DNA from: Candidatus Micrarchaeia archaeon
GTDB lineage: Archaea; Micrarchaeota; Micrarchaeia; Anstonellales; Anstonellaceae
Assembly: GCA_041665945.1 (NCBI GenBank)
Contig: JBAYHU010000002.1
Span: 43,350-107,349, forward strand
Direction of reading: 5' to 3'
DNA: 64,000 bases
Shown here: piece after piece, positions 6,281 through 55,257 of the stretch
Position numbering within the stretch: the first letter of the stretch is position 1
How the letters are laid out: every line of letters begins with the position of its first letter
The notes under the pieces: model-generated
Database searches by the model: none
Seen by the model: the letters and a program-made list of their open reading frames with translations, nothing else
Told to the model about the DNA's origin: nothing
Position numbers and translations under genes: made by a program

Positions 6281-6299
6281 AATATCAACCTTGCAATAA

Positions 6300-6674: not shown

Positions 6675-6684
6675 AATCATCACT

Positions 6685-7083
6685 TTACACTACTGCTGCG
6701 GCGATTGCCGCGACTTTGGGGAAGCGCGTCGCCACTTCGCGGGCGATGACTCCCTTGATTTCCGTGCCGACGGGCAGCCCCTGGTCGTCGATTATGACGC
6801 AGGCGTTGTCCTCGAAGGAAATCCTCATGCCGTTGGGGCGCCTGAAGTGCTGCGCCTGGCGCACCACCACCGCCTTGAGGACCTTCTTCTTCATGGCAGC
6901 GGAGCCCTTCTTGACTGCGACCGTAATTATGTCGCCGATGCCGACCTTGGGGTACATGGCGCGCTTCGCCTTTGCACCCTTCACGCCGATTATCATGACC
7001 ATCTTGGCGCCCGAGTTGTCGTTGCAAATGAGCACCGAACCGGTCTGCAGGCCCTTTGTGATGTGTCCGCCCAATCCTTTCAT
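6685..7083 (-). CDS. rpl14: 50S ribosomal protein L14 (uL14)
   Basis: Highly conserved uL14 sequence. Confidence 0.94.
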   Translation of the reverse strand: MKGLGGHITKGLQTGSVLICNDNSGAKMVMIIGVKGAKAKRAMYPKVGIGDIITVAVKKGSAAMKKKVLKAVVVRQAQHFRRPNGMRISFEDNACVIIDDQGLPVGTEIKGVIAREVATRFPKVAAIAAAVV

Positions 7084-7112
7084 AGTATCAACTTTTCATC
7101 CAACGATGGAAA

Positions 7113-7517
7113 TTATTCTTCCTTTTTCGCCTCTTCCTTCACGGGAAGCTCGGCGCGCTTGACCTCGGCTTTCTTCAGGCGGTCGGCTTCCTCGCCGAGA
7201 GCCCTGCCTCCTTTCGCTTCGATGACCACGATGCCGCGGGCGCGCTCGGTCACTTTCGTGACGGTCCACGCCTTTGTCTTTGAAATCTTCCTGCATTCCG
7301 CTATCTCGACCATGTCGCCGAGCTTCGCTCCGACCGCGTCGGGGTTGTGCACCGGCACGCGGCTCTTGCTTCTTGCGGAGCGCGCGTACTTGGGGAAGCG
7401 CTCGAGTGTCTCCCACTCGACGATGACCGTCCTCTTGGAGCGGTCGCTGACGACCTTGCCCGTGCGGACGTGCCCGCGCGGGACAATCGGGCCTTTCCTG
7501 CTTGGATTTTCAACCAT
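7113..7517 (-). CDS. rps17: 30S ribosomal protein S17 (uS17)
   Basis: OB-fold S17 with a K/E-rich C-terminal extension. Start at the ATG after GTAATATTT. Confidence 0.88.
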   Translation of the reverse strand: MVENPSRKGPIVPRGHVRTGKVVSDRSKRTVIVEWETLERFPKYARSARSKSRVPVHNPDAVGAKLGDMVEIAECRKISKTKAWTVTKVTERARGIVVIEAKGGRALGEEADRLKKAEVKRAELPVKEEAKKEE

Positions 7518-7543
7518 AAATATTACCTCGGACATTGCAAACA

Positions 7544-7816
7544 TCATTTCAGTTTCTTCGGACGGTCATATGGCCTGAACACAATCTTGTCCCCAACGAG
7601 GTCCGCGGTTTTCCCTCCGGCGAGCCGGAAACGGAAAACGCATCCCTTTTTGGGCACGGTTTTCTCTGTCCCATCCCCCGTGCGAAGCACGAGCGTGTTC
7701 TTGGTTTCGTCAACCACGATTCCCTCAAGCCCCTCATGCGGAAGCGAAAGCGCGCGTTGCACTTTTGCCCGCAGGCCGATGAATTCGTGGATGCGGAGAT
7801 TCTGCGGCGTTATCAT
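7544..7816 (-). CDS. rnp1: RNase P protein component 1 (Rpp29/Pop4)
   Basis: GIVVDETKNTLVL...KKGCVFRF matches the archaeal Rpp29 Sm-like domain. Canonical position between SUI1 and S17. The ORF finder over-extended the 5' end; start at MITPQNL with AGGTG upstream. Confidence 0.8.
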   Translation of the reverse strand: MITPQNLRIHEFIGLRAKVQRALSLPHEGLEGIVVDETKNTLVLRTGDGTEKTVPKKGCVFRFRLAGGKTADLVGDKIVFRPYDRPKKLK

Positions 7817-7827
7817 AATCGCCACAC

Positions 7828-8145
7828 CTACTGCAGGTTTTCCATGACGGTAATGCTGCCCTCGGGATAGCCGAAGTTCACCAGGGCTTTCCTGATGTTC
7901 TTGCGCTGGTCCCCTTGCAGGACAATCACGCCGTCCTTTACGGTTCCGCCGCACGCGAGCTTCTTCTTCAGTTCCTTGCCGGTCTCATCGAGCTTTGCCT
8001 TGTCGATGCCCTCGACGACTGTCACCAGTTTCCGGAACCTTTTCTTCGTCGCGTATGCGCGGATTCTCTGCGTCTCCTCCTTTTCGAGGATGTCGCAGGA
8101 GCAAATCTCCTTTATCAAACCGCATTTCGGACAGATATCAGCCAA
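7828..8145 (-). CDS. Translation initiation factor SUI1/eIF1 family (with N-terminal Zn ribbon)
   Basis: C-P-K-C-G...C-S-C ribbon plus a SUI1 domain (...GGTVKDGVIVLQGDQRKNIRKALVNFGY...). Apparent TTG start preceded by GGTGGA. Confidence 0.85.
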   Translation of the reverse strand: MADICPKCGLIKEICSCDILEKEETQRIRAYATKKRFRKLVTVVEGIDKAKLDETGKELKKKLACGGTVKDGVIVLQGDQRKNIRKALVNFGYPEGSITVMENLQ

Positions 8146-8200
8146 TTTCGTCCACCTTCCACGACCGCTTCCGCAGCCGTATATTTTTCATATATTAACG

Positions 8201-8473
8201 TTACTTCTTTGCCTCGGCTTTTTTCGCCGGCTCTTCTTTCTTGCCTGCGAAAGCCTTGACTTTCCGAACAATGCCGAGTTTCCTCTCGTGCAGGATGGTC
8301 AGGATGCGCGCCACGGACTTCCTAAGCTCGCTGACCTTCCCGGTGTTGGACGCCCTGCCTCCTGCCGCAAGCAGCCCGCGCTCGGAGTTGAGCTCCTTCT
8401 GGAAGTCAAAAAGCTTGGTCTGCAGTTCCGCATCGGACATTTCCCGCAGCTTGCTCTTCTTGATTATTGCCAT
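8201..8473 (-). CDS. rpl29: 50S ribosomal protein L29 (uL29)
   Basis: MAIIKKSKLREMSDAELQTKLFDFQKEL... is L29. K/A/E-rich tail. Confidence 0.85.
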   Translation of the reverse strand: MAIIKKSKLREMSDAELQTKLFDFQKELNSERGLLAAGGRASNTGKVSELRKSVARILTILHERKLGIVRKVKAFAGKKEEPAKKAEAKK

Positions 8474-8485
8474 ATGAATCAACAC

Positions 8486-9214
8486 TTACCTTCTCCTCTG
8501 CATCGGGCGCCTCTTCTTCATGGGCATGGGCGTCACCTTGGGCGCCACTTCCATGGGCGTTGATGCCGTGACGTCGGCTGCTCCGGAGATGACCCTCGGA
8601 AGCTCTATCTTCGCGCCGGACACCTTGTCGGGGAAGACGGTTCCCGGGAGGACAATCCTCACGAGCACGCCGATTGCGCCCGACTTGGGGTACGCAGTCA
8701 CGTGCGACACGGCAACCTGCCTTGCCGGCTCGCCTGCCTTTGGAATATAACCTGCCATGACGCGCAGCTTCTTGCTCCTGCCGCCTTTCGCGGCAATCTT
8801 GCCGGATGCGACGATTTCCGCGCCGAGTGCGCCTGCGCGCATGGCGTCACGGAGAGCCACGTGGAGGATTGCGCGGATTTTCTTCCCCATTTCAATGTAC
8901 TTGCAAATCCTCTTCGCAACGAGGCGCGGCTCGATGTTCTGGTTCGTGGATTCCACGACCGAAATCTGCGGGTTTTCTATCTTGAATTCCTTGTGGATTG
9001 CGTCGGTGAGGTCCTGTATGCTCTTGCCGCGCTTGCCGATTACCCTTCCCGGGTTGGTCACTTCGACCGCGATGCGCGTCACCATCGGGGTGCGCTGGAT
9101 GCCTACGCGGGAAAACCCTGCGCGGTCAAGCTCGTGCTCGAGGAACTTGGACACGCGGTAGCGCGTGATTGCGTCCTCGATGAACTTTTCCTCGACTTTC
9201 TGTTTGTCTCCCAT
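8486..9214 (-). CDS. rps3: 30S ribosomal protein S3 (uS3)
   Basis: KH-domain S3. GTGATATTT-ATG context. Confidence 0.93.
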   Translation of the reverse strand: MGDKQKVEEKFIEDAITRYRVSKFLEHELDRAGFSRVGIQRTPMVTRIAVEVTNPGRVIGKRGKSIQDLTDAIHKEFKIENPQISVVESTNQNIEPRLVAKRICKYIEMGKKIRAILHVALRDAMRAGALGAEIVASGKIAAKGGRSKKLRVMAGYIPKAGEPARQVAVSHVTAYPKSGAIGVLVRIVLPGTVFPDKVSGAKIELPRVISGAADVTASTPMEVAPKVTPMPMKKRRPMQRRR

Positions 9215-9230
9215 AAATATCACATGTCAG

Positions 9231-9821
9231 TTATTGGGTTGCCGCGGTCGTTGCCGCTTTCGCTTCCGTTTTCTTCGCGGGCTGCTCGGCTGCTTTCACG
9301 CCGGTGCTCTTTGCCTGCGACTGCTTTGCAGCGGACTTCTTCTCCGCCTTCTCGCCCTTCTTTTCAGCCTCCTTGGGCTGCCACTCCTGCAATACCACCT
9401 CGACAAAGGCGGTCTCGAAGTTGTGGACAATGCGCCTGCCCTTGGGGGACATGCGCGGGAAAGTGTGCTCCTTGTTCGCGATTATGTGGACGATTTTCGT
9501 GCTGCCCACGCCGAGCTTGTTCGCGTTCGCGAACGCGGACTTCACCACGCCGAGTACGATTTTCACGGACTTGACAGGCCAGCCGCCCTGCTGCCCGCCG
9601 AGCTGGCGGACGTGGCCGCGGCCCTTGCCGTGGCGGCGCATGGGGATTGCCTGCTCCATGACGGACGCGCGCTCGAGGAACTCGATTGCTTCGTCGGTCG
9701 GCTTGTAGCGGACCGCCCTGCAGACCTCTCCGAGGTCCTTGAACGAGGCGTTGATTCCCGTGAGCCTTGCGCGCGCAGTGCGCTTGGTTGATTCCTTCTG
9801 GAATGCGTAGGTTTCGGTCAT
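9231..9821 (-). CDS. rpl22: 50S ribosomal protein L22 (uL22)
   Basis: uL22 core plus a long K/A/E-rich C-terminal extension. GTGATATTC-ATG context. Confidence 0.9.
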   Translation of the reverse strand: MTETYAFQKESTKRTARARLTGINASFKDLGEVCRAVRYKPTDEAIEFLERASVMEQAIPMRRHGKGRGHVRQLGGQQGGWPVKSVKIVLGVVKSAFANANKLGVGSTKIVHIIANKEHTFPRMSPKGRRIVHNFETAFVEVVLQEWQPKEAEKKGEKAEKKSAAKQSQAKSTGVKAAEQPAKKTEAKAATTAATQ

Positions 9822-12081: not shown

Positions 12082-13029
12082 TTATTGCTTGGATTCAAGG
12101 GAGATGTAGCGAAGTTCGGGCGCCTTTACCGGCGTTGCGAGCTTGCGAAGCGCCCTGCGCATGCGGATAAGCCGCTTGCACGGGCCTGCCACGCTTCCCT
12201 TTATCAGTATGAATTCATTCTTGAGGACGCCGTAGTGCTGGAAGCCGCCCTTGGGGTTGATTTCCTCGGGGGTGCCGACCTTCATTATCCTCTTGTTGGG
12301 CTCGGTCCTCTTGTGGTAGCCCATCTGCCCCGCCATCGGGACCGTGTAGTGAACGTAACCAGGGTGCCATGCGCCCAGCGTTCCGGTGTGCCTGCGCTTG
12401 TTGGTCGCCTTCCTGCGCTGCTGCGCTGTTCCGAATCTCTTGACCGGCCCCTGCCAGCCCTTGCCGGTAGTGATTGCAACAATGTCAACGAACTCGCCGG
12501 GCTTGAAAAGCTCGGATGCCTTCACTTCCTTGCCAACAAGCGAATTTGCGAATTCGAATTTCTCCGCCGCGTCCTTGCCGCCGACGGCGATTTCCATCCG
12601 CTCCGGCGTTTTCTTGCCGAATCCGGTCATGCCCGGGCGCGCGTAAGCGAGAACAAAAACATCGGAAACATCAGAAGCAGTGAATTTCTTTGTTGATTTC
12701 TTTGAAACGCCAAGGGGCTTGGTGATTTTCTCATCGGAGGTAATCAGGTCGCCGACGACCTTGCCGTCCTTGTATCCGCGCACGCCGAAAATCATGAGGG
12801 GCGGGCACTCGATGACGGTCGCAGAGGCGAACACCTCGTTGCCCTTTGACGGGGACTCGGTGTCATCCACCCAAGTCACGTGGGTCATGCCTGCCTTGTA
12901 GCCTGCAAACCCGAGAAGCTTCTTTTCGGTTGAAGACGGCCAGTACGATACTGCCGGCATCTGCGAAATCGCACGCTTGCGCGGGCGGAATGCGCGCGAA
13001 CCTTTCTTGTGTCCAGATCTTTTTCCCAT
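12082..13029 (-). CDS. rpl3: 50S ribosomal protein L3 (uL3)
   Basis: uL3, 315 aa. First gene of the cluster. SD GGTGA precedes the ATG. Confidence 0.95.
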   Translation of the reverse strand: MGKRSGHKKGSRAFRPRKRAISQMPAVSYWPSSTEKKLLGFAGYKAGMTHVTWVDDTESPSKGNEVFASATVIECPPLMIFGVRGYKDGKVVGDLITSDEKITKPLGVSKKSTKKFTASDVSDVFVLAYARPGMTGFGKKTPERMEIAVGGKDAAEKFEFANSLVGKEVKASELFKPGEFVDIVAITTGKGWQGPVKRFGTAQQRRKATNKRRHTGTLGAWHPGYVHYTVPMAGQMGYHKRTEPNKRIMKVGTPEEINPKGGFQHYGVLKNEFILIKGSVAGPCKRLIRMRRALRKLATPVKAPELRYISLESKQ

Positions 13030-13165
13030 GAAGTTTCACCGAAATTTTCAGGCATGGAGAATTCCATGCTGATGAAATACCCTGATTGATTGCTGTGAAA
13101 TACCCAACCAGCAATGATTCGCCATGCTTCTTTCCCTCTCGAGGAGGGGTGACGGCGAGTGTCAT

Positions 13166-13183
13166 CTTACAGCATTCTGTAAG
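13166..13183. repeat. Perfect hairpin CTTACAG-CATT-CTGTAAG in the leader region upstream of the L3 operon
   Basis: 7-bp inverted repeat with a 4-nt loop, about 140 nt upstream of the L3 start codon. Candidate r-protein autoregulatory or processing structure. Confidence 0.4.
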
Positions 13184-13210
13184 AAGCGTGGCTTGATATT
13201 GAAACAAGAG

Positions 13211-13218
13211 TTTAAAAA
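13211..13218. promoter_or_regulatory. TATA-like box TTTAAAAA between divergent L3 operon and plus-strand gene 13248
   Basis: AT-rich octamer in a GC-rich spacer. It lies about 30 nt upstream of ATG 13248, consistent with a leaderless transcript. It is near-palindromic and could also serve the L3 operon. Confidence 0.4.
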
Positions 13219-13247
13219 GGTTCCTTCAGGCGGCAAACGCCGGAGAA

Positions 13248-14807
13248 ATGGCTTTTCAGATAACTTGCTACGGGAATAAAAAACCATATGAACAGAAAAA
13301 GACACAAATTACAGGGGGGAGAATGATGGTTGACGCTAAGGAAAACAGGGTCTGGCAGTCCGAACGCGAAAAAAACGGGGAAAACCACGCTTGGAAAGAG
13401 ATTCTCGAGAGGAATATCCGCAAGATTGACTGCGAGTTGGATACTGGCGACCCGGCAACCATGCTCGTAATACAGCTCCGGGGTTCCGGCCTCAGCCTGA
13501 TGGATGTATTCGACTCCGATGTACCCCTGAAATGGTACGCGAGGCAGATGTCGATTAATTCCACTGGATATGCAAGGAGAACCGAACGCTTCCTGCAGGC
13601 GCTTGAAGCCACGCGGATGCAGTACGAGATTGCCGTTGAATTGGGAAAAAACCTGAATGAAAGATCATTCTCGGGCGACGAACAGCATTGGATGGGAGTC
13701 GCGCGCGAGTTCGTCCAGTTCGTGGAGATGGGCAGCGGGCAACCTGCCGAGGTTTTCTTCAACCCCATGTCAAGCGTGTTTTCAATCGACAAGATGGAGA
13801 ATTACTTGCGCGTTTTCCGTTTCCAAAACGACATCAAAGGAATCACCTCGTATGAATTCAAGACAGCGGTTGAAAAAACCGATTCGAGGAAAATAAAGGG
13901 AAAGGCGCAGCAAACATGTGTGGAAATTGAAGGGCAGGCAAAAACACCTGCGCGGGTTGATGTGCAGAGTGCGGATGCCGCGCCCGTAGCGAAAAACTTG
14001 GAGTTCGTGAAAAAAATGGAAGCCGCCGGGCTTGGGGCGGAAGCCCGAAAAATCCTCGCTTACCTCGAGAAAAAAAACACTACGCTTGAGAAAATAAGCG
14101 AAATTGAGCTTTGGAGGCAGTCCGTGTCCCTCTTCGAAAAGCCGCGGACCTCGTATGACAGCCAGACAGGCATAGGGATTGCGAACAAAATCATCGAAGC
14201 TGCCGGCAAGCACGCCGCGGCGGTGAGTGCGAAGGAAATGAAGCTGACTGACTGGGAAGCGGCATTCGCATGCTACATGCACGACAACTACCGCAAACGC
14301 GGCACTGCGCTCGAGGCAATCGCACACATCAAGAAAAACGGCATTTCCGAGGAGAAAATCATCTCGCTTGGTGAAAATGAGATAATCGGGCTCGTGGCAT
14401 CGATGCCGTGCGGCTACGGGTCGTCGCGGATGTATGTTGACATCGACTCCGTAAGAAAGCAGCTTCTGCGGGGAATCGAATACGCCAGCAAGGAGGAGCG
14501 AAGCCGGCTGAAGATGGAGCCCGTTGAATACCCGTGCCTTGAGCACAAGACAACCATCAGGTTCGAGGACATCGGCTCCGAGAGGCATTACCGAAGCAGG
14601 GCAGGAACCGATAACGCCGCAGGCACTGAAACGGCAAGCCAGCAATCATCCGGCGCGGGAAACGCGTATTTCGGCGGTTTGCCCAGCGGAACCACGGACG
14701 TACTGGCGCTTGTGCGGCAGAGGGACGCGGCGATAGAGAAAAGGAAAGCGTGGGAGAAGAGCCACCCTGGCGCGAACAGGAATAACGGGAAGCACCGCCG
14801 CCACTGA
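13248..14807 (+). CDS. Hypothetical protein (519 aa), no recognisable domain
   Basis: Long ORF with native codon bias. Possible alternative start at 13326, preceded by AGGGGGGAGA. C-terminal region is G/S/A-rich and basic. Confidence 0.6.
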   Translation: MAFQITCYGNKKPYEQKKTQITGGRMMVDAKENRVWQSEREKNGENHAWKEILERNIRKIDCELDTGDPATMLVIQLRGSGLSLMDVFDSDVPLKWYARQMSINSTGYARRTERFLQALEATRMQYEIAVELGKNLNERSFSGDEQHWMGVAREFVQFVEMGSGQPAEVFFNPMSSVFSIDKMENYLRVFRFQNDIKGITSYEFKTAVEKTDSRKIKGKAQQTCVEIEGQAKTPARVDVQSADAAPVAKNLEFVKKMEAAGLGAEARKILAYLEKKNTTLEKISEIELWRQSVSLFEKPRTSYDSQTGIGIANKIIEAAGKHAAAVSAKEMKLTDWEAAFACYMHDNYRKRGTALEAIAHIKKNGISEEKIISLGENEIIGLVASMPCGYGSSRMYVDIDSVRKQLLRGIEYASKEERSRLKMEPVEYPCLEHKTTIRFEDIGSERHYRSRAGTDNAAGTETASQQSSGAGNAYFGGLPSGTTDVLALVRQRDAAIEKRKAWEKSHPGANRNNGKHRRH

Positions 14808-30852: not shown

Positions 30853-30922
30853 AGGATTCCTAATCAAGAAGGGCTCAGGAGAAACGGAATTTAAACGGCA
30901 CAAAGAAACATAGTGATATTTG

Positions 30923-31888
30923 ATGAGCACCGACAGTAAACCAGAACTAGACGCCTATCCCGGGCTTGTCTCAGACACCTTTTCCAAGATTTTTACCGCA
31001 ATGCGGCAATTTCTGGCTAGCAAGAACATCGTAATAACTCCCGAGTTTACCTTTTTCTTCGCACTAGCCGCGTACATCTTTTTAGATAACGACATAACTA
31101 ATATAGCATCCAAACTAAATACGCCTACAATCGTAATACTGACTCTTGTGGGTCTAAACCTGCTGTGGCCCAACCTCCCACAAATAAAACGCACGATTTT
31201 CAGCACTGATGAAGAAAAATTGAATAAAATACTAAAAATATGCAATGAACAGGAAGCGTTAAGCAAGTTGGGTAATTTTTTAGCAAGTAGTGGAACGGAA
31301 CTAAAAATAACCAAAAAAATATTTTCAAGAAGATTTGCAGATAACTATGAAGCATATGATTTATTTTTCAAGAATGTTAGCATGGATGAAAGCGAGGTTA
31401 ACTACCTAATACAGAGAAGAGTCATAAACAAGCCATTTTTCAACGAATTGTTGATGGAGAATTTTTTGGCTAAAACCCCTTGGACGATTTCTTATTCGAC
31501 CTATCAAAAATTAAAGCAGATCATACGAGAAAGAAACTTCTCTAGCCGCATAAGAAAATTATTCAACTACAGATATTGCAGATATAGTGATGGTTCATTA
31601 AAACAAACTGTTTTGATTCATGAACGAGAAAAAGCATATCTGATAGTCAGAAAATTACTTATGATAATGTTGGCAGCATCGGTCGCGGCGATATACATTT
31701 TTGGCGCAGTTGCGATAATTAGCGCACAGACTCCTCAAAATGCAGCCATGACTACCCAAATAGCCAATGTGGTAGAAGCTTCAGCTGCACTTTTTGCAAT
31801 AGGAATCGCTCTGCTGATCATTATTCATATTGTAAATTGGTTCATGAAACAGTTGTTCCTCCAATTCTTAGTTAAAGATACAATTTAG
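30923..31888 (+). CDS. Low-GC (about 35% GC) multi-TM hypothetical protein (321 aa), probable horizontally acquired gene
   Basis: Strong compositional contrast with the roughly 60%-GC flanks, yet the ATG is preceded by the native-type GTGATATTT-g context. About 4 TM helices (2 N-terminal, 2 C-terminal) with a soluble middle domain. No family recognised. Confidence 0.65.
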   Translation: MSTDSKPELDAYPGLVSDTFSKIFTAMRQFLASKNIVITPEFTFFFALAAYIFLDNDITNIASKLNTPTIVILTLVGLNLLWPNLPQIKRTIFSTDEEKLNKILKICNEQEALSKLGNFLASSGTELKITKKIFSRRFADNYEAYDLFFKNVSMDESEVNYLIQRRVINKPFFNELLMENFLAKTPWTISYSTYQKLKQIIRERNFSSRIRKLFNYRYCRYSDGSLKQTVLIHEREKAYLIVRKLLMIMLAASVAAIYIFGAVAIISAQTPQNAAMTTQIANVVEASAALFAIGIALLIIIHIVNWFMKQLFLQFLVKDTI

Positions 31889-31989: not shown

Positions 31990-32117
31990 GCGGAAAGGCA
32001 CAGGAAAATTCGCATTAGAATATACTGGGACTGGCAACTGGGACCATCAGCAACCGGCGATTTGCCGGAAAGCGCGGGAGGCAGGGGAAAATTCGCCCTA
32101 ATATATACTGTATATGG
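31990..32117. repeat. Duplicated about 40-bp element (GGCGGAAAGGCACAGGAAAATTCGCATTAGAATATACTG / GCGGGAGGCAGGGGAAAATTCGCCCTAATATATACTG), copies about 83 bp apart
   Basis: Direct imperfect repeat in the 240-nt spacer upstream of gene 32131. Each copy ends in a TATA-like AATATATACTG. Candidate tandem promoters or regulator sites. Confidence 0.4.
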
Positions 32118-32130
32118 AAGGTGTTTTGGA

Positions 32131-32874
32131 ATGCAGGCGCACAACAGGAGAATACTGAACGAGAAATTCACGGGAAAGGTCGCATCACGGCTCGGCCTTT
32201 CCATGGAGCAGGAAGGCAGGCTCAACAGGAAGTTTTACGCTTACCACGATTTGGTGCACCCGCGCCTGAAGAAGGAGCCGACCGCGATTGACGGATGGAA
32301 ATTCATCGCAAGCGGGATGGAAAACCATGCGCCTGCGCAGCCGCACGCCGAAAACGCCCAGTTCGAGCATCTTGAGAAGGCGAAGCTGGAATTGGCTGAC
32401 GAGCTTCTCGCCATCTTAAAGGAAGCCCCGGCGAGAATCAAGGATACGAAGCTCGGGATAATCAGCGCGACTTCCGGCTTTTCCCTCGCCATAATCGGGC
32501 TTGAGGACCTTCTTGGCAAGCAGGCAGTCCGCCTGAAGCTCGACACCGCGGCAATTGCGCCGGCGGCTGAGAAAGCCGAGGGGCTCAAGAAATTCTTCAA
32601 GGGGAAGACTGCGAAACTCACGCTCGGCTCGCTTGCGGCAGGCGTGGCGGCGTTCGGAACAGGGACCGTAATCGCGATATTGCAATCCATTCCCGAGCCG
32701 GTGCCCGCAATCATGGCGGCGGGATACATTGCACTTGGCGCAATCCTCTCGGTACTGGTCGCAGTAAGGTCAAAGCATATCTACCACTCGTCAATGTTTT
32801 TGGCTTACAACCGGCAGGCAAAGGAGGCGCAAGAGGCGCAGAAGCAGGAAGGGAACACGGGAAGCAAGAATTAG
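32131..32874 (+). CDS. Hypothetical membrane protein (247 aa)
   Basis: SD AGGTG-ttttgga-ATG. Helical N-terminal domain and C-terminal TM helices. The ORF finder started 23 codons upstream. Confidence 0.6.
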   Translation: MQAHNRRILNEKFTGKVASRLGLSMEQEGRLNRKFYAYHDLVHPRLKKEPTAIDGWKFIASGMENHAPAQPHAENAQFEHLEKAKLELADELLAILKEAPARIKDTKLGIISATSGFSLAIIGLEDLLGKQAVRLKLDTAAIAPAAEKAEGLKKFFKGKTAKLTLGSLAAGVAAFGTGTVIAILQSIPEPVPAIMAAGYIALGAILSVLVAVRSKHIYHSSMFLAYNRQAKEAQEAQKQEGNTGSKN

Positions 32875-32950: not shown

Positions 32951-34351
32951 ATGGCAGAACAGAAAACCGCGCAGCTGCGCGAGAAAGTCGTGTCCAAGAT
33001 AATCACGGTGTCGCGGAGGTTCCACTACGAGCCGCTCACGTCAGACCTTGACGAGAGGATGCCGCTTCCGAAAAACATCTCGCTCATGGCGCTGTCCTAC
33101 CTTCTCGACGGCAACCACCTCATCAAGGGCGACCCGGGATTCGGGAAAAGCACGGGCGCGAAGATAATCTCCTCGGTATTCGGCGGCGTGCCGTACGACT
33201 TGTACCACAGCCTCGAGCTTCAGGGGCATTCCGGGCAGGTGAAGGAGCACGCGGTCGGAAGGCTGGATTTCTCCACCGAATCCGCGGGCGAGAACATGAT
33301 TTGGATGGGCACGATTGCGCTGCCCGTCCTCCACGTGGACGAGGGCAACCGCCTTCCCCCGGAAACGCAGGGCGGCATATTGCAGGGGCTTGAGACCAAG
33401 CGCTGGAACTATTCCGGCAACCACACGTATTACGCCGGGCCCAAGCCCGCGTTCATCACGGTCAATTACCACGACGAGGGGACGGAACGCTTCCTACCCC
33501 CGCTTCTGGACAGGATGGACATAGTCACCGAAAACCAGTACACCGGCAGGAACAACTTCATCACCAACATGACCTACGAGCTTGCGAAAAGCGAGCGGCG
33601 CAGGCTGCTTCGCGACGATGCGATAACCAACGAGGCGATGAAGAAGCTCAACAAGAAGGGCATCGAGGAATTCGTGAAATACTGCAAGGAAAACCGCCTG
33701 AAAATGGTCGGGAAGATAACGGATGAGGAAAAGGCGGAAATATTCGCGCAGATAGACGCGGTGAGCGTTTCCAAAAAGGGCGCGGGCGGCTCGCTCGTGT
33801 CGGGCAACGACGCGCTATTGTTCCTCTCGGCATTCGACGCGGAAATCAACTGGTCGGAAAAATACGGTTCCAAGCGCTCGGCAGACACGATAAGCGACCA
33901 CAGCCACGACAGGAAATACATCGGGGTGGATGTGAAGGGCGGGTTCTCCCCGCGCTCGCTTGTCGCAGCCCTGCGCTATGCAAAGGGAGTGGCGTGGCTT
34001 TCGGGAAGGGACGAGCTTGACATCAGGGACGTCGTTGCCGTGCTTCCGCACGCAATCGCGCACAAGACCGCGTTCTCGGAGAAATTTGTGAAGGACGCCG
34101 AGGGCAGAAACGAGATGCTGGAGCTTGCGCTCGCGAGGAAGCTCGTGGGCAAGGCGCTTGAAAATTACAGGAAAGCCGCAGACGGAATCAAGGGGCTGCT
34201 TGCCAAGATACAGGAGGCGCCGCAGGAAATAATGAAGTTCGACATCGGCAAGTACGACCACCCGCTCCAAAAGTCGCTCATCTCCACTGTGAAGGACGAA
34301 TTCTCCAAGCACGAATCGTACGGCGATACCGGGCTTGAGGAAACGGTCTGA
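32951..34351 (+). CDS. MoxR-like AAA+ ATPase
   Basis: Walker A GDPGFGKS; Walker B / sensor LHVDEGNRLPPETQGGILQGLE, typical of MoxR. Long helical C-terminal extension. SD AGGAG. Confidence 0.85.
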   Translation: MAEQKTAQLREKVVSKIITVSRRFHYEPLTSDLDERMPLPKNISLMALSYLLDGNHLIKGDPGFGKSTGAKIISSVFGGVPYDLYHSLELQGHSGQVKEHAVGRLDFSTESAGENMIWMGTIALPVLHVDEGNRLPPETQGGILQGLETKRWNYSGNHTYYAGPKPAFITVNYHDEGTERFLPPLLDRMDIVTENQYTGRNNFITNMTYELAKSERRRLLRDDAITNEAMKKLNKKGIEEFVKYCKENRLKMVGKITDEEKAEIFAQIDAVSVSKKGAGGSLVSGNDALLFLSAFDAEINWSEKYGSKRSADTISDHSHDRKYIGVDVKGGFSPRSLVAALRYAKGVAWLSGRDELDIRDVVAVLPHAIAHKTAFSEKFVKDAEGRNEMLELALARKLVGKALENYRKAADGIKGLLAKIQEAPQEIMKFDIGKYDHPLQKSLISTVKDEFSKHESYGDTGLEETV

Positions 34352-34384
34352 GCCCTGCGCGGGCATTTGCAAACGGGTGCGCTG

Positions 34385-36289
34385 ATGAAATTCCTCTGGA
34401 AAAAGCAGGATGGCGTCGAACGCGGAAACGCGGGCAGCGGCGGCGCGGGCTTTTTCAAAAGGCAGATGCAGGAAAAGCCGCAGATCGAGGTGGAAAAATT
34501 CCTCTGGCAGTGGGAACTCTGCCGCGCGCTTTTCCACTCGCCGGTGCTTTCCGCGCCAAAAATGGGCGCCCCTCCCCTCGGATTTTCAGGCGCGCACCAC
34601 GACATCGCCACTGGCGAGACTTGGGTGGATGCTGAAGCGGCGCGCGGGCTTTCGGACGCCACCGGCTGCCAGTTCGAATCCGTCCTCTCAGGGCTCATGA
34701 TACGGCAGATTTCAAGCTACATGGATTTCCCGAAAAGCCTCTCAAACGCACTCATCCTCGAAAAGATGATTCTTGACTTCTGCAAGGGGGACGAGGCGAG
34801 GAACCCGGAATTTTTGCGTTTTGTTTCAATGGCATTCTCCGCGCTTGCCGCCGACGCATGCTCGGTCCTTGACCCGGAAAAGGCAAGGCACGCACTTGAG
34901 CTTCGCAGGGCAATGGCAGCGGCGAACCCCGGCGACTTGCGCCTCCAGCTGGAATACGCCTATTTGCAGTCGCAGGCAAGGCAGGACGTGAAGCCGCCCG
35001 CAGGGCTGGAGCGCGAATTTGAGAAGCTGCACACCGTTGACTTTTCCGCCGCGGGGGAAAACCACGAGGAGATGCGCCGCGCGCTGATGATATGGATGGA
35101 AATCGCGCGAAGCGTTTCGGCGCAGGAATTTTCCATGCCCGGGCGGCGGGGATTCGGGAAGGGGGCCGGCTCGAGGAAAGGATGGGGCGCTGGCAGGATG
35201 GAAGTTGTTGACTCGGACCACTCACAGTCCATTTCGCAGGCAAGCGGGCACAATCTTTCGCAGGCGCTTGCGCAGGCGGCGTCGCGCCTCTCGCGGCAGG
35301 AATTCGAAAAGGTGAGGAAAATCGCCGGCGAGATGAAAGGCGAGGGCGGCGGCGGGCATGGCGCGCAGGGAATCGGGCTGGATGAGTCGTTCAGCGGGCT
35401 TGACGTGGATGCGTCCACGGTCGAATATTATCTCACGCTCGTCAGGAATTATCCGCTGGTAATCGGCAGGGTGCCGATTGAAACCAACGGCATGCGAGAT
35501 GTCTACAAGGGGACCGAGAGGTTCACGGCTGGCTCGCCCCCGCACAGGGCAATGCCGTTCACCTCGGGCGGGAAAATACTGCCCGGAATCACGAGGATGA
35601 CCGGAATCGGAAAGAGGCACAGAAGGACCCTTGACTACGAGGTGCCAAACGCGCTGATATTGATAGACTCAAGCGACACCATGCCCGACCCGGCAACCCA
35701 AAAGTCCGCGCCGGTGGCTGCGGGGATTTCCACTGCTATTTCCTACCTCAACATGGGCGGGGAAGTGGGCGTCCTCAATTTCGGGCCGAAAAGCTGCTAT
35801 CTCCCCTTCGGGCGGGATGAAGGGCGGATATTCCTGTCCATCGTGGCAAAGCAGCACGGCGGCACGCGGATAGACGTCGGCATCGTGAAGCAGATGCTTG
35901 AGGCGCAGGGCAGCGGGCATCTTATCGAAGGCGGGCTGGACATTTCGTGCGTGCTTTCTGACCCGGCATTCGAAAAAATTGCGGCCGAGGCGGCGAAGAA
36001 GGAAGTGTCAGTTTCGACCGACGCGATAAGCCGCATTTCCGGCGCAAAGCCGGTTGACCTGTTCATATTCTCGGACATGAAGATATCCAACCTCTCCGAG
36101 CTTTTGGGGCTGGTCGAGGAGAGGGAGGGCGTGAACCGCGCCACGATAATAACAAATTCGGGCATCAGCGCGGAGGAACTCGGCGTTTCTGAGAAAATAC
36201 GCGTCTATTCCAACGTGAATGACGTGGAGCAAAGCGTGCAGATTGCGGTTGGCGAAGCCCGCAGGGCAATGGGGAACAACGGCGAGTAA
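34385..36289 (+). CDS. von Willebrand factor A (vWA) domain protein, MoxR partner
   Basis: C-terminal vWA with the MIDAS motif DSSDTM...G. Large unique N-terminal region of about 400 aa. SD GGGTG. Confidence 0.8.
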   Translation: MKFLWKKQDGVERGNAGSGGAGFFKRQMQEKPQIEVEKFLWQWELCRALFHSPVLSAPKMGAPPLGFSGAHHDIATGETWVDAEAARGLSDATGCQFESVLSGLMIRQISSYMDFPKSLSNALILEKMILDFCKGDEARNPEFLRFVSMAFSALAADACSVLDPEKARHALELRRAMAAANPGDLRLQLEYAYLQSQARQDVKPPAGLEREFEKLHTVDFSAAGENHEEMRRALMIWMEIARSVSAQEFSMPGRRGFGKGAGSRKGWGAGRMEVVDSDHSQSISQASGHNLSQALAQAASRLSRQEFEKVRKIAGEMKGEGGGGHGAQGIGLDESFSGLDVDASTVEYYLTLVRNYPLVIGRVPIETNGMRDVYKGTERFTAGSPPHRAMPFTSGGKILPGITRMTGIGKRHRRTLDYEVPNALILIDSSDTMPDPATQKSAPVAAGISTAISYLNMGGEVGVLNFGPKSCYLPFGRDEGRIFLSIVAKQHGGTRIDVGIVKQMLEAQGSGHLIEGGLDISCVLSDPAFEKIAAEAAKKEVSVSTDAISRISGAKPVDLFIFSDMKISNLSELLGLVEEREGVNRATIITNSGISAEELGVSEKIRVYSNVNDVEQSVQIAVGEARRAMGNNGE

Positions 36290-36290
36290 G

Positions 36291-37124
36291 ATGGTATCCA
36301 TGGAGCAGAAAAAAATCGATGGGGAAAAACAGCAGGCTGGCGGAAGCCCTGCGAAGCGCGCCTTCTCCCTTGCCGGGCTTTTCTCAAAACAGCAGCCAAT
36401 CGCCGAGAAACTCGCCCCGCTTGTGAAGGTGAACGAGCGCGTGCGCGAGATGGATGATGCGCTTGACGCAGCGCTTGCGGCAAAATCATACTATACCGCT
36501 GAGCGCAAGGAGGCGCTTGCGAAGATAGCCGGCATGGGGCACACTGCGGAGGACATTGCGGAATTCGCGCTTTCGCTTGGCAAATACCAGGGCAGGAAAA
36601 ATTTCGCAAACAGGGCGGGGCTTTTCCTCTCCGAGCTTTGCAATTCTTGCGCCGACAGGGCAATCACGCTGCACCTCTCGCACCTTGACACGCCGATAAA
36701 CTACCTCGGCTTCCGCAACCGCAAGGAGCTCACAGTAATCGGCAACGCAGGCAGCCACTTCGGGCAGGAAAACGAGGATGGCTCGCTTTCCCTTGAGGGG
36801 AACGCGGGCAGCTTCGCGTTCTTGCGCATGCGGGGCGGCAGCGCGAAAATCACCGGAAGCGCGCTTGACTATGCGTGCGAGGAGATGGAAAACGGGAAGG
36901 CGTCCATAGGCGGCAACGCGCGCCACCATGCAGGCAGGATGATGAGGGGCGGGCAGGCGCTTTTCAACAGGGACGTCGGCGACGCCGCGTTCGAGGAGAT
37001 GAGCGGCGGGAATGCGATAGTCCATGGGCTGGCCGGCGAAAATCCCGGGCGCGGAAGGGTTGGCGGGCACCTGACGATATACAGGAATGCGTGGAACAAC
37101 GGCAGGGCGCAGCACGGGCAATAG
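36291..37124 (+). CDS. GXGXG beta-helix repeat protein (GltB C-terminal / FwdC-like domain)
   Basis: About 19-aa repeats GNAGSxxxxxMxGGxAxIxG (GNAGSFAFLRMRGGSAKITG, GGNARHHAGRMMRGGQALFN, ...) typical of the glutamate-synthase alpha C-terminal / FwdC fold. Start is translationally coupled to the vWA stop. Confidence 0.65.
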   Translation: MVSMEQKKIDGEKQQAGGSPAKRAFSLAGLFSKQQPIAEKLAPLVKVNERVREMDDALDAALAAKSYYTAERKEALAKIAGMGHTAEDIAEFALSLGKYQGRKNFANRAGLFLSELCNSCADRAITLHLSHLDTPINYLGFRNRKELTVIGNAGSHFGQENEDGSLSLEGNAGSFAFLRMRGGSAKITGSALDYACEEMENGKASIGGNARHHAGRMMRGGQALFNRDVGDAAFEEMSGGNAIVHGLAGENPGRGRVGGHLTIYRNAWNNGRAQHGQ

Positions 37125-37173
37125 CGGTTTTTATTCGTTTTATATCAGACAAGGGCACATCGGGAATGGTTGC

Positions 37174-37956
37174 ATGGATTTCAGGCTCTGGAAAAAACCC
37201 GAAGGGAACAAAAAGTCGCCGCTATTGGAAATAATCTGCCCGCGGGCGCACAACCTGAAGTTCCCGGAAATGGAAGTGGCAATCAAAAAAGCGGTCGGGC
37301 ACGCGAAGCGAAAGATGGACTCGGACGGGGCGCCCGCAGCCGCGATACTGTTTTCCGAAGGGGAGAATTTCCGCTTCACGATAACGCAGGAGGAGGGGGC
37401 AATCTACGCGGAGAGGGTGCAAAAGCTGCTCCCCAACGGCTATTTCATCTCAGTCGCATTCAACCTTCTTGAAAGCAGCGAGCCGGACGGCGGCTACAAC
37501 GGCTGCAACAACGGCTACCTCGTTTCGCGGGAGCAGGTGCTGCACTCGCCGAAAAGGAACCTGACAACGTTCGAAAAGGATGTCGTCGGGAACATCCTCC
37601 TGCCGGAATTCCAAAAAAATTGGGAGGCGCGAACGCGGGAACTCGAGGAGAAGGGCGAGCTGTTCGGCAGCATTGATTTCGGGTTCGACCAGAGGATGGA
37701 GCACAGGATTTGCGCGGATGTGTGCCAGTCGCCGATATATTTCGAGCCGCAGACAATCACGCTTGTTTCGGCAGGCGGCAACCAGGTCTCGTATTACAAC
37801 AGGCTGGCGGGAAACCGGATGGCGGTTGTCACCAACGACTCGACAAAGCCCGAGCCCGTGGTCTATAAGCGGGAGGGCACGGTTTGGGGCATAAAGGCGC
37901 TGGAGGGGTTCCACATGCTGTCCGTGTTCGAAAATCCGGCTAATCCGCAACTTTGA
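37174..37956 (+). CDS. Hypothetical protein (260 aa)
   Basis: In an operon-like arrangement after the GXGXG gene. No recognisable motif. Confidence 0.55.
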   Translation: MDFRLWKKPEGNKKSPLLEIICPRAHNLKFPEMEVAIKKAVGHAKRKMDSDGAPAAAILFSEGENFRFTITQEEGAIYAERVQKLLPNGYFISVAFNLLESSEPDGGYNGCNNGYLVSREQVLHSPKRNLTTFEKDVVGNILLPEFQKNWEARTRELEEKGELFGSIDFGFDQRMEHRICADVCQSPIYFEPQTITLVSAGGNQVSYYNRLAGNRMAVVTNDSTKPEPVVYKREGTVWGIKALEGFHMLSVFENPANPQL

Positions 37957-38341
37957 ATTCCGCTTTCTTGCTGTTTGAGAAGTAGCATGCCACGTCTTTC
38001 ATCCCGTAGGGCGCGGCTGCGATGAAGTTTATTCCTCCTTTTTTCGAAAAAAGCCGCAAATCCTGCCGCGAGGGGAGTATGTTGCCGTTCGGGTGCGAGT
38101 GGAAGCTCCCGACAACGCCGTCAAGCAGGGGCATCATCCAGTCGTCGAACATGGACGCGCCCCTTGACACGGAAATGCCGGGCGGGATGATCGTGCCATC
38201 TATTACTATATTAGTAGTGTTATCCGCGCCATCCTCGCGCTCACCAGTAAGAAGGCAGATGAACTCGTTTGGGTAAGCCGCCTTCGCGCCGGCGAGCGCG
38301 GAGAGCAGGGCTTGCCTCTTGATGATGATTTCCATAAACAT
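37940..38341 (-). CDS. JAB/MPN (JAMM) metalloprotease, deubiquitinase-like
   Basis: Exact JAMM motif E...HSHPNGNILPSRQD (H-x-H-x7-S-x2-D) with an upstream Glu (LTGE). About 134 aa. Convergent with the MoxR cluster; the two overlap by 17 nt. Confidence 0.8.
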   Translation of the reverse strand: MFMEIIIKRQALLSALAGAKAAYPNEFICLLTGEREDGADNTTNIVIDGTIIPPGISVSRGASMFDDWMMPLLDGVVGSFHSHPNGNILPSRQDLRLFSKKGGINFIAAAPYGMKDVACYFSNSKKAEFKVAD

Positions 38342-38497: not shown

Positions 38498-38636
38498 ACG
38501 GTCTGATGCACAAATGCGAAGCATTTGGGCAGTATTTGTCCGAAGGACAAATCTGATGCAAAAAATGGAATTTTTTGCAGACTTTGTCTCGCAAGGCAAA
38601 GCTGATGCACGAAAGCTGAAACTGATGCGAAAAACA
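38498..38636. repeat. Array of four AAA-CTGATGCR-AAAA repeats, with a 9-bp-arm palindrome GCAAAAAAT-gga-ATTTTTTGC embedded
   Basis: CTGATGCA/G at 38503, 38553, 38602 and 38622 (spacing 50, 49 and 20 bp, so not coding periodicity). Copy 2 is half of an extended palindrome TCTGATGCAAAAAAT-GGA-ATTTTTTGCAgAC. Lies in the divergent spacer between the JAB gene and the ICMT-like gene. Confidence 0.5.
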
Positions 38637-38656
38637 CGGGACAGACGGCGAGGCAC

Positions 38657-39094
38657 ATGGCAGACGGGCAAACCTATTTCATAATCCTGCTGATTCTGCC
38701 CATGTTGCTGAATTTCGCATTCCCCGCCCCGGCAATCGTTTATGCCCCGTACACGTATTTCGGGATAATTCCCATCGGCTTTGGAATAGCCATCGCCCTT
38801 TGGAGCCGCTCGTTGTTTGTGAAGAGCAGGACAACGCTGTCGCCGCATGAAACGCCCACCTCGCTTTTGACCTCCGGCCCCTTTCGCATAAGCCGCAATC
38901 CGATATATCTTGGAATGGCGGCCATGCTGTTGGGCAGCGCCGTATTGCTTGGGACGCCGGTTGCTTTCGCATCCCCTGCCTTATTTGTCATCATAATTGA
39001 AACCCTGCTCATACCCGGCGAGGAGAGGAAGATGGAAAAAATATTCGGGGACAGGTACAGGAAGTACAAGGGCAGCGTACGGCAGTGGATATGA
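38657..39094 (+). CDS. Isoprenylcysteine carboxyl methyltransferase (ICMT)/PEMT-family membrane methyltransferase
   Basis: TM-rich. C-terminal GPFRISRNPIYLG...LIPGEERKMEKIFGDRYRKY is diagnostic of the ICMT/PEM family. Confidence 0.75.
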   Translation: MADGQTYFIILLILPMLLNFAFPAPAIVYAPYTYFGIIPIGFGIAIALWSRSLFVKSRTTLSPHETPTSLLTSGPFRISRNPIYLGMAAMLLGSAVLLGTPVAFASPALFVIIIETLLIPGEERKMEKIFGDRYRKYKGSVRQWI

Positions 39095-39168
39095 ACCGGA
39101 ACCCGGATGCGCCCGCGACCAACGGATACGTAAAGCGTATTTTATTGTTTTGCAGAGGCAAGAATCGC

Positions 39169-53873: not shown

Positions 53874-54206
53874 ATGCAAGGATTTGCAATAGTCAAGCTC
53901 GAAGCCGACAACGTCGCGGTTGAGGAAAACGTTGTCCAGCAGTTCAACGAGTACATGCAGAGAACCGAAAAGACGCAGTCGTTCGTCCATGACGGGGAAG
54001 GGTATTTCCGCATGGCTTACAGCGAGAAAGTCGGCATGACGTCCGCCCCGATTGAGACGTTCGGGAATTTCCTGCTCTCAAGCGGGTATTCGGTGAACGG
54101 GATATCGAGCGCGAACACGATTGACGGGGAAAACGGAACCATGGTTTCGTTTGAAAAAGGCGGAAAGGAGGCGCACGTGACGCTTTCCACCGTGAGAATA
54201 TATTGA
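53874..54206 (+). CDS. Hypothetical protein (110 aa) inserted between grpE and dnaK
   Basis: SD GAGGTGGGAAC-ATG. No recognisable family. Confidence 0.55.
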   Translation: MQGFAIVKLEADNVAVEENVVQQFNEYMQRTEKTQSFVHDGEGYFRMAYSEKVGMTSAPIETFGNFLLSSGYSVNGISSANTIDGENGTMVSFEKGGKEAHVTLSTVRIY

Positions 54207-54219
54207 GAAGGCGATGACC

Positions 54220-55257
54220 ATGGCTATCGATGAAGAAAAAATTCTCAAGAATACCGATGCATACACGGCAGTTATGTTCGGAGGCTTGTTCGGCGCGTTT
54301 GTAGGAATAATTTTTTCTCTGTTCATTCTTCCATTTACACTTAGGGGCACTGATGGAAGAATAATGTATTTTGCAACTGAAACTCCTATGACTTTGCCTT
54401 TGCAATTCGACCAATGGCAGGTGTTTGTACTTGGAATGTTTCTAGTGTTTTTAGTGTTGTTTGCAGTAATGGCTACGATATTTCAAACACTCCTAAGATG
54501 GAAAAGCAATGCGCTTAAGGACGTAAAATTGCCTGCAGAATACATCAAAAAGAACATTTACTGGATAGTTGGCATAGGTCTTTTGGTTTCCTTTGGAATA
54601 GTAGGTTGGGACTCCACAAAAATTATCGCCCTATCTACTGTCGCATACACTCTGATGACGATGTTGTTAGTTCTAGAGAATAAAGCGATGAGAGAAGCGC
54701 AGACAGAACCTAGAATGTCAGTATATCTAAAACCAAGAGAAGAATCGATAAATCTGATGGATTTGAATGTTGAAAATATCGGTATGGGGCCTGCCTTTGA
54801 CATCAATTTTAAGATAGAACCAGATTTTGCCTGCATGGGAACCGGTAATCTTTCAACGATACTAAACAAGATAGCGTATCTCACACCGAAAAATACTAGG
54901 AGCGTATTCCTCACTAGCATGCTGGACAACTTTGAAGAAAAAAAGAAGACAAAACTTCTCGTTAAAGTTAGTTATAAAGATAAAAACGGAAAGCAATACA
55001 CAGAAGAATTTACCTTAGATTTCTCTGAATTCGTAGGACTAACCCAGATAGGGAAACCGCCTCTTCATGAAATAGCAGATAATACTGAGAAAATTAGTAA
55101 GGCAATTGAGGGCATACTCTCGAGTTCTGATAGTTTCAGAAAGCCAGAGATTATCGTAACAACAAGAAAAGAGATTGCAGATGAGCGCCAAAAATTAACA
55201 AAGGAAATGAAAAAGAAATTTGAAGCACAGAAGAAAGAGAAACAAAATAATGTTTGA
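54220..55257 (+). CDS. Low-GC (about 38%) membrane protein (about 345 aa) inserted between grpE and dnaK
   Basis: Marked AT-richness relative to its flanks. Four TM helices, then a K/E-rich soluble domain. Its stop is immediately followed by the dnaK SD. Confidence 0.6.

Follow-up and report, generated by a model that had tools for sequence, protein, structure and literature searches.

A MoxR-type ATPase, a vWA protein and FwdC-like beta-helix proteins form a conserved three-gene operon in DPANN archaea and some bacteria

Several described systems combine a MoxR-type AAA+ ATPase with a dedicated partner. In those of the DUF2201_N/DUF2201 type, the partner is a putative metallopeptidase domain fused to a von Willebrand factor A (vWA)-like domain, often encoded beside MoxR genes, and we know of no beta-helix partner for them. 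Other MoxR-type ATPases, such as the gas-vesicle protein GvpN and the one in the p618/p892 MoxR-vWA pair of ATV, aid the assembly of structural polymers that are encoded as nearby paralogs; the ATV case is reportedly described by Scheele 2011, cited in a review on MoxR-vWA systems (PMC7159879). In MoxR-vWA pairs, the metal ion-dependent adhesion site (MIDAS) of the vWA domain captures a client peptide and the AAA+ ring remodels the client (PMC7159879), and in NorQD a finger of the vWA protein enters the AAA pore (PMC13036017). These pairs are widespread, yet few of them have a known client. Here, we describe a locus in which a likely client is encoded together with the ATPase and the vWA protein. 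It lies in a 64-kb stretch of DNA from a metagenome-assembled genome of Candidatus Micrarchaeia; we call this whole stretch the window, and coordinates refer to it unless a locus label precedes them. The locus comprises a MoxR/chelatase-clade AAA+ ATPase gene (AAA), the gene of a vWA protein (X), and the gene of a GXGXG-repeat, FwdC-like beta-helix protein (GXGXG, or client).

These three genes constitute a conserved operon of DPANN archaea and some bacteria, which we refer to as the triad. In the window, AAA (32951..34351, + strand) encodes a protein of 466 residues, X (34385..36289, + strand) one of 634 residues, and GXGXG (36291..37124, + strand) one of 277 residues. The genes are tightly packed, with the ATG of GXGXG separated by a 1-nt spacer from the TAA of X, and at other loci they overlap. 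Loci encoding a relative of X came from exact-protein look-ups and from scanning GTDB species genomes, which gave 21 loci, and JGI metagenomes, which gave 41. After duplicate removal, 63 non-redundant loci remained, the window included; names such as L001 are labels of the loci or contigs collected in this way. Neighbouring genes were called in six-frame open reading frames (ORFs) with hidden Markov models (HMMs) from the window proteins and their relatives. An AAA gene is found in 34 of the 35 loci that have at least 2.5 kb 5' of X; one or more GXGXG clients accompany X in 31 of the 33 that are flanked on both sides. The triad occurs in Micrarchaeota, Aenigmatarchaeota and other DPANN archaea, in Desulfobacterota-like bacteria, in Desulfarculaceae and other "delta" lineages, in Thermodesulfobacteriota and in Binatia, with the order AAA-X-GXG in the clade of the window and AAA-GXG-X in bacteria and Aenigmatarchaeota.

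Both of these 33 loci that lack a client (L019 and L020) come from Woesearchaeota. The first has only an unassigned 210-residue gene 3' of X. In L020 (647-12885), as in L021 (4095-8254), X stands amid up to nine paralogs that share the helical adaptor of the clients, described below, and in which a 24-residue solenoid repeat (GxxALxxVASxGGxxNQVIGVxIxG) replaces the GXGXG coils; no AAA gene was detected in L020 within 5 kb.

The initial annotation had proposed five consecutive genes as one neighbourhood, adding to the triad a gene for a 260-residue protein, called an orphan, and a convergent JAB metalloprotease gene. The ORF map confirms all five genes at the coordinates it gave. As a neighbourhood, however, only AAA, X and GXGXG hold together, along with a clade-specific upstream gene, UP, since not one of the 62 other triad loci has a member of the JAB or 260-residue family and the synteny of a close relative, L031, separates both from the triad, as detailed below.

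Judged by its motifs and profile matches, AAA is a divergent, unnamed subfamily of the MoxR/chelatase clade. It has a Walker A motif, GDPGFGKS (G60-x2-G63-x-G65-K66), a Walker B motif with D130-E131 (VDEGNRLPPETQ in the Walker B/sensor region), and a lid bearing the sensor-2 motif FSPRS. In an alignment of 16 family sequences, G60, G63, G65, K66, D130, E131, N172 and D187 are invariant, the sensor-1 Asn included, as is the sensor-2 R335, with the Arg finger R188 nearly invariant (at least 90%). A family-specific insert of about 130 residues, carrying the motif AEINxSExYGxKR, lies between core and lid. The lid exceeds the Pfam cut-off of AAA_lid_2 (PF17863; 28.2 against 22.7 bits), and its stretch GFSPRS…YAKGVAWLSGR aligns with lid residues 257-304 of MoxR 2r44; the core stays below the cut-offs of AAA_3 (13.9 bits, cut-off 27) and AAA_5 (15.7 bits, cut-off 22). 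A phmmer search with the single sequence gave no PDB AAA+ match, and the profile of the 16-member family matched MoxR 2r44 best (4e-9), followed by ChlI (1e-8) and then by BchI, RuvB, Lon and CobS. In two loci, L022 (2979-4663) and L049 (86-1331), AAA is broken up over two ORFs; a frameshift, decay to a pseudogene or an assembly error could account for this.

The product of X, 100% identical to NCBI WCT52_01690, is built from an N-domain (residues about 36-250), all-alpha with a beta-hairpin, a long and confidently predicted hairpin (about 365-415), and a vWA domain with an intact MIDAS (about 420-630). Even though the window protein has no match in Pfam or NCBIfam, and only an artefactual one in PADLOC (DrmD, E 0.019), its AlphaFold model, made from a 54-sequence alignment, reaches a pLDDT of 85 and a pTM of 0.81. 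Foldseek of this model against the PDB returned vWA domains only, the best one being NorD in NorQD (9qhe_G/9qh8_G), with a probability of 1.0 for NorD, CMG2, integrin I-domains and Rpn10. The MIDAS consists of D428-S-S430-D-T432, T494 and D564, of which D428, S430, T494 and D564 are invariant in the 54 sequences; Pfam VWA_2 is matched below threshold by 20 of these (best E 3.8e-6), the window protein not being one of them. The tip of the hairpin, SGGKILPGIT, stands just before vWA strand 1 and is the most conserved motif across the whole X family.

The N-terminal region of this protein had been described as unique. It instead defines a family: a word-indexed search found 5 relatives of X, and at least 364 cluster representatives were recovered when HMMER was run exhaustively with a profile, with 114 reaching E<=1e-30. 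Most of the relatives, among the 150 listed, have an HE[IV]GH motif about 70-100 residues from the N-terminus, with which the IRQISSY of the window protein aligns exactly. In the group with the complete motif, invariance extends from the H, E and H to the Pro that follows and to an Asp about 35 residues further on. Three states of the motif occur: DPANN lineages that have client arrays show HExxH, as do Woesearchaeota; every bacterial copy has H[AG]xxH; and nothing of the motif is left in L013, in L007 or in the window clade. Because RQxxS replaces HExxH in it (RQISS), the window X is, by its motif, a pseudo-peptidase, which cannot be active as a peptidase. Relatives of the N-domain were sought in Pfam, with whole proteins and with N-domains, in the PDB by profile search, and by Foldseek with either model, and none was found; the model with a confident N-domain gave nothing below E 0.4. 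Since there is no Pfam or PDB relative, the term zincin-like peptidase is motif-based, and we use it for a putative activity.

The GXGXG protein of the window has a divergent N-terminal tag (…SLAGLFSKQQPIAEKL…), a helical adaptor (AEDIAEFALSL…RAGLFLSELCN) and a right-handed beta-helix of the FwdC/GltB type. The same three parts, N-terminal peptide, helical adaptor and GXGXG coils, are recognised in an alignment of 39 clients, where the adaptor follows the consensus Y[ST]xxD[IV]ExF…KAG[IL]FLSAL[IV]N and the coils terminate in GGEIH[IV]xG…GKI[FY]HKG. When compared with solved chains by phmmer, the window protein matches 9sw6_K (2.3e-10) and 5t5i_C (6.8e-8), with FmdC/FwdC chains ranging from 2e-10 to 1e-4 and GltS at 0.04. 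It stays under the cut-off of Pfam GXGXG (PF01493; 27.1 against 32.5 bits) and under those of the FwdC equivalog models TIGR03122 (70.5 against 130.65 bits, E 1e-19) and NF042910 (45.3 against 340 bits). Matches to the FwdC models start at about residue 124-143, leaving the tag and adaptor region uncovered, and tag and adaptor have no Pfam family.

Annotation pipelines would call this protein FwdC-like on the strength of its sub-cut-off TIGR03122 match, and its gene could then be read as a chance neighbour, unrelated to AAA and the vWA gene, or as a stray fragment of a glutamate synthase or formylmethanofuran dehydrogenase. The FwdC equivalog scores nevertheless fall far short, the clients bear a family-specific tag and adaptor outside the FwdC models, and the adjacency is kept in 31 of 33 loci, in two domains of life, despite changes in gene order. 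Because of these neighbourhood statistics we consider chance adjacency refuted, with a probability of virtually nil. An association of the gene with a nearby glutamate synthase, which the initial annotation had kept in mind, is not what is found either: its neighbours are AAA and X.

The tag exists in several forms. In DPANN clients it reads LAxxxRFGxYKPExExxVRK, with 49 distinct versions; in bacterial clients it is placed at the very N-terminus and reads MxNPFxEF…[IL]PL[DE][RQ][IL]; and in the clade of the window it reads LxGLFxxQ…EK. In L015, L017 and L018, genes lying between X and the clients encode a family that has no beta-helix but likewise begins with the DPANN tag, which argues that the machine would recognise the tag rather than the beta-helix. 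The number of clients varies too, with 8-10 of them in tandem around a single AAA and X in L016, L035, L037 and L039, and 8 in L017, whose contig starts inside X, so that AAA is out of view. Bacterial copies have a single client and are embedded in conserved housekeeping synteny.

Our preferred reading, to which we give somewhat better than even chances, is that the triad encodes a MoxR-vWA machine that remodels or processes tagged beta-helix proteins as its clients. On the model of NorQ/NorD and other such pairs, AAA would form a hexameric motor on which X docks through its vWA domain and the long beta-hairpin finger, with SGGKILPGIT at the tip of the finger placed in the pore. The MIDAS and the N-domain of X would capture the N-terminal tag and the helical adaptor of the client, and ATP hydrolysis would remodel, release or assemble the beta-helix protein. 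Where X retains HExxH, as in the DPANN lineages with client arrays, the tag or a pro-region would probably be cleaved as well, whereas in the window clade (RQxxS) X would act only as a binding and remodelling adaptor. One possible fate of the beta-helix proteins is to assemble into higher-order structures, an idea prompted by the paralog arrays and by the GvpN and ATV tail precedents. A broader version, which we put forward as tentative and would not expect to hold in full, is that of a new class of ATP-driven processing or assembly machine, in which a zincin-vWA adaptor reads a tag of roughly 25 residues on up to 10 clients per locus, for instance in beta-helical filaments or in surface or contact structures of DPANN episymbionts, and in which the peptidase has been repeatedly inactivated (from HExxH through H[AG]xxH to RQxxS) to yield versions devoted to remodelling.

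Several points weigh against this reading. The contacts between AAA, X and client, any cleavage and what the beta-helix proteins do in the cell are inferred by analogy, and these proteins could be a cofactor or an adaptor instead of a substrate. The DPANN tag HMM misses the client of the window itself, and tag recognition in the window clade is thus an extrapolation. Tag type and HExxH state co-vary along the phylogeny, and their co-variation therefore adds no independent support. Finally, the putative peptidase nature of the N-domain draws on the HExxH(+D) motif, on the order of secondary structures and on weak Pfam matches, each of them of a single member (BSP 0.003, Peptidase_Mx 0.012, M48 0.21).

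The genes that surround the triad differ between clades and include those of a guanylate kinase, an HD protein, a methyltransferase, a PilZ protein and a desaturase. A functional partner in the flanks was considered and rejected, the recurrent flanking families being lineage-specific housekeeping or metabolic genes. In three loci of Anstonellaceae/Micrarchaeota (L001 10697-17857, L003 and L004), the triad is followed by a convergent gene for a 270-residue protein, named CONV, and then by a metal-homeostasis cluster with ferritin/rubrerythrin, a FeoB-like gate protein, NikR and ZnuABC. Neither CONV nor these metal-homeostasis genes are present in the window.

Such neighbours bear on a first competing explanation, according to which the triad would be a chaperone for metal-cofactor insertion or an enzyme activase, acting on a metalloenzyme encoded elsewhere in the manner of NorQ/NorD, CoxD/CoxE, CbbQ/CbbO or CobS/CobT, with the beta-helix as scaffold or adaptor in the way FwdC serves the amidohydrolase FwdA. 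It would account for NorD in NorQD being the best fold match of X, for the profile matches of AAA to ChlI, BchI and CobS, for the metal-related genes next to the Anstonellaceae triads and for an Amidohydro_2 gene 3' of X in Binatia-type loci; FwdC is, moreover, known as a structural component within a metalloenzyme complex, such as that of the matched chain 5t5i. No target enzyme, however, is conserved beside the triad, whose flanks are clade-varying housekeeping genes, a single scaffold role would sit badly with arrays of 8-10 tagged paralogs, and the metal-related neighbours are limited to one clade and absent from the window. We therefore hold this explanation to be unlikely.

The recent history of the locus in the window can be read from L031, a 66-kb contig of a close relative with RpoA', RpoB' and RpoB'' proteins 96% identical to those of the window, and with 89% identity over 5.7 kb by blastn. 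DNA similarity between both ends at position 30853 and resumes at 37233 (blastn/tblastn), and the triad thus lies in a variable segment of roughly 6.4 kb, either gained here or lost in the relative. The window has the order RpoH, low-GC gene, UP, AAA, X, GXG, one gene of the 260-residue family, JAB, PEMT and 4HBT, and L031 the order RpoH, three tandem paralogs of the 260-residue protein (6271-8777), convergent JAB (89% identical) and 4HBT (86% identical).

The gene for the 260-residue protein (37174..37956, + strand) and JAB (37940..38341, - strand) are accordingly backbone genes that did not arrive with the triad. Upstream of the former come a T-rich tract and then, at about 37139-37146 and some 30 nt before the ATG, a TATA-like element, TTTATATC. 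Its product is not the orphan it was taken for, because homologues exist (P0159-P0161), including the three tandem paralogs of L031, a family to which it is 55% identical at the same backbone position. JAB encodes a Prok-JAB/JAMM metalloprotease of 133 residues, well above the Pfam cut-off (PF14464; 46.1 against 25 bits, E 5e-12) and matched by PADLOC JAB (3e-5), with a complete JAMM motif, H-S-H-x7-S-x2-D (FHSHPNGNILPSRQD), and an upstream Glu. An orthologue with 89% identity keeps the same position in L031 and L032, where its neighbours are paralogs of the 260-residue protein and 4HBT, with no Ubl/E1/E2 gene alongside.

A five-gene system, in which JAB and the 260-residue protein act with the MoxR, vWA and beta-helix genes, for example in the deconjugation of a ubiquitin-like tag, could appeal to the physical adjacency of the genes in the window, where the convergent JAB and 260-residue genes overlap by 17 nt at their 3' ends, and to the occurrence of JAB domains in some MoxR-independent conflict systems. 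Yet both families are missing from all 62 other triad loci, both genes keep their backbone position in L031 in the absence of the triad, and, while JAB runs in the opposite direction and has an intergenic region of its own upstream, the other gene is preceded by its own TATA-like element. This proposal is refuted because the co-occurrence is not conserved, and we regard it as highly improbable. The original hypothesis is hence corrected: the JAB protease is a bystander, not a partner of the triad.

Some observations on these two genes stand apart from the triad. The 260-residue protein was considered as a diverged member of CONV, which was rejected (hhalign probability 0.05%). In L033 (961-2001), the N-terminal 160 residues of its family are fused to a histidine-kinase-type HATPase_c, again beside rpoH, which hints at a sensor-like domain. 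The intergenic region upstream of JAB contains CTGATGCA repeats and is shared with the divergent PEMT gene (38657-39094), which is phospholipid/isoprenylcysteine methyltransferase-like. Between 38503 and 38634 there are at least 4 copies of CTGATGC(A/G), spaced by about 50 nt and 20 nt, along with two small palindromes, TGCACAAATGC/GCATTTGGGCA and TGCAAAAAAT/ATTTTTTGCA. As this array lies inside the divergent intergenic region of JAB and the PEMT-like gene, it is a probable operator array for one of them and not for the triad. A second segment without DNA similarity to L031 spans 38541-39118, in place of which L031 has about 60 nt (9305-9366), and constitutes a second insertion/deletion difference in the neighbourhood.

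The repeat array (38.5-38.6 kb) and, on the other side of the cluster, a low-GC island had both been noted initially, and both are real. The region at 31-32 kb has a GC content of 37%, against about 57% for the remainder of the window, and contains a gene (30920..31888, + strand; about 37% GC) for a membrane protein of 322 residues with three hydrophobic segments. This protein has no match in Pfam, PADLOC, NCBIfam or PHROG, and tblastn found no counterpart in any related triad locus. Placed at the left end of the segment absent from L031, next to the synteny break at 30853, the gene is probably island cargo. Further GC dips in the window, at 54001-55000 (41.5%) and 13001-14000 (48.8%), may be other acquired segments.

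Between the low-GC gene and AAA lies UP (32062..32874, + strand), with a likely start at ATG 32131, a product of roughly 250 residues and a gap of 77 nt to AAA. The protein has two C-terminal transmembrane helices (segments 165-187 and 190-214), a homologue in L004 (blastp 8e-14) and a weak PADLOC match to "2TM effector" (E 0.0018). According to HMM matches, a UP gene is found immediately upstream of AAA only in the window and in the Anstonellaceae/Micrarchaeota loci L001, L003 and L004, and UP is a clade-specific fourth gene of the triad; in the machine that we favour, it may tether the system to the membrane in the window clade. Directly 5' of UP, a 32-nt direct repeat occurs twice (31996-32027 and 32079-32110, + strand); the copies are 81% identical to each other, each has a TATA-like AATATA(T)ACTG, and they possibly represent, to judge from their sequence, a duplicated promoter or operator. 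No RNA family was detected in the window with Rfam. Stretches resembling the client tag in UP and in the 260-residue protein (RKFxxY and FRLWKKPE) turned out to be unsupported, given that the DPANN tag HMM finds nothing better than E 1.9 in the window.

The position of the triad in a variable segment beside the low-GC gene, its patchy distribution over DPANN archaea and a few bacterial phyla, the expansion and diversification of the client paralogs and the PADLOC match of UP would all fit a conflict, defence or symbiont-host interaction module whose logic would be akin to that of the vWA-MoxR ternary systems. The beta-helix paralogs would then be sensors or effectors released by an AAA/vWA(-peptidase) core, with UP as a membrane effector in the window clade, and a peptidase-vWA fusion has indeed been reported as a rare effector-position domain of ternary systems (PMC7159879). 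On the other hand, AAA, X and the client have no PADLOC match, apart from the DrmD artefact of X, and no VMAP, caspase, trypsin, nuclease or other recognised effector domain is present. No relatives turned up in IMG/VR, the INPHARED phages or the PLSDB plasmids, and the single-client bacterial copies sit in conserved housekeeping synteny. We consider a role in conflict quite unlikely. A viral or plasmid origin was also rejected, with no relative in those three collections and no informative PHROG.

The remodelling or processing machine that we favour would be of interest for several reasons. With a likely client encoded in the operon, tagged and sometimes present tenfold, the relation between motor, adaptor and client becomes directly testable, and since its client is identifiable we rate the revised three-gene finding as more interesting than the five-gene original. 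It would also provide the first functional context for the "FwdC-like" proteins that stand alone and that, in DPANN as in other genomes, routinely receive a wrong annotation. The N-domain of X defines a new HExxH domain family, putatively zincin-like, with natural active, half-dead and dead states. The triad arrays, of up to about 12 kb, represent a sizeable mobile investment in the very small genomes of DPANN archaea.

As for the known systems, X shares with the DUF2201-type proteins an N-terminal HExxH domain and a C-terminal vWA-like domain encoded beside a MoxR-like ATPase. PF13203 and PF09967 were nonetheless unmatched in the 54 X members (whole proteins, E<=0.01) and in 20 N-domains (E<=10), and at the level of sequence X is not a member of the DUF2201 family. 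The likeness to GvpN and to p618/p892 of ATV is limited to that of a precedent, and polymerisation of the clients would be purely hypothetical. With FwdC/FmdC and the GltS C-terminal domain (PF01493), the clients share a homologous GXGXG right-handed beta-helix. They differ from them in the extra N-terminal tag and helical adaptor, in the sub-cut-off Pfam and TIGR03122 scores of the window protein, and in their genomic partners, which are not FwdA/B/D or a GltS catalytic partner but, obligately, the AAA+ ATPase and the vWA protein.

The vWA-MoxR-VMAP systems (Kaur, Burroughs, Iyer and Aravind 2020, PMC7159879) have in common with the triad a MoxR ATPase, a vWA co-chaperone and a diversifying third protein, as well as an occasional peptidase-vWA fusion, frequently inactive peptidases and a patchy phyletic spread. 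Contrary to them, the triad lacks VMAP, effector-associated domains and PADLOC matches, has as its third component a GXGXG beta-helix with a common N-terminal tag, and is found mainly in DPANN archaea of reduced genomes, not in multicellular bacteria.

In gene arrangement and fold, the triad resembles NorQ/NorD and the wider set of MoxR-vWA chaperone pairs (CbbQ/CbbO, CoxD/CoxE, RavA/ViaA, CobS/CobT, BchI/BchD), in which a MoxR/chelatase-clade AAA+ gene likewise stands directly beside a vWA gene with an intact MIDAS. Besides the NorD vWA domain being the best PDB match of the X model, the hairpin of X, beside its vWA domain, would occupy a position comparable to that of the NorD finger in the NorQ pore (PMC13036017). 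The triad departs from these pairs in that no metalloenzyme target is linked to it, in an AAA protein that falls below the AAA_3 and AAA_5 cut-offs and carries the insert of about 130 residues, in the 250-residue HExxH-family N-domain of X, which is without Pfam or PDB relative, and in a constant third partner, the tagged FwdC-like beta-helix protein, at times in arrays of 8-10. The initial annotation had held the combination of a MoxR-like/vWA core with a GXGXG beta-helix not to be a described system, and this view stands: the combination recurs in the 31 of 33 loci given above, and a literature search returned no paper combining MoxR with GXGXG, MoxR with FwdC, or GXGXG with vWA. The triad is thus apparently undescribed, and follows the known logic of a MoxR ATPase, a vWA protein and a third protein with components and tagged-client arrays that appear to be new.

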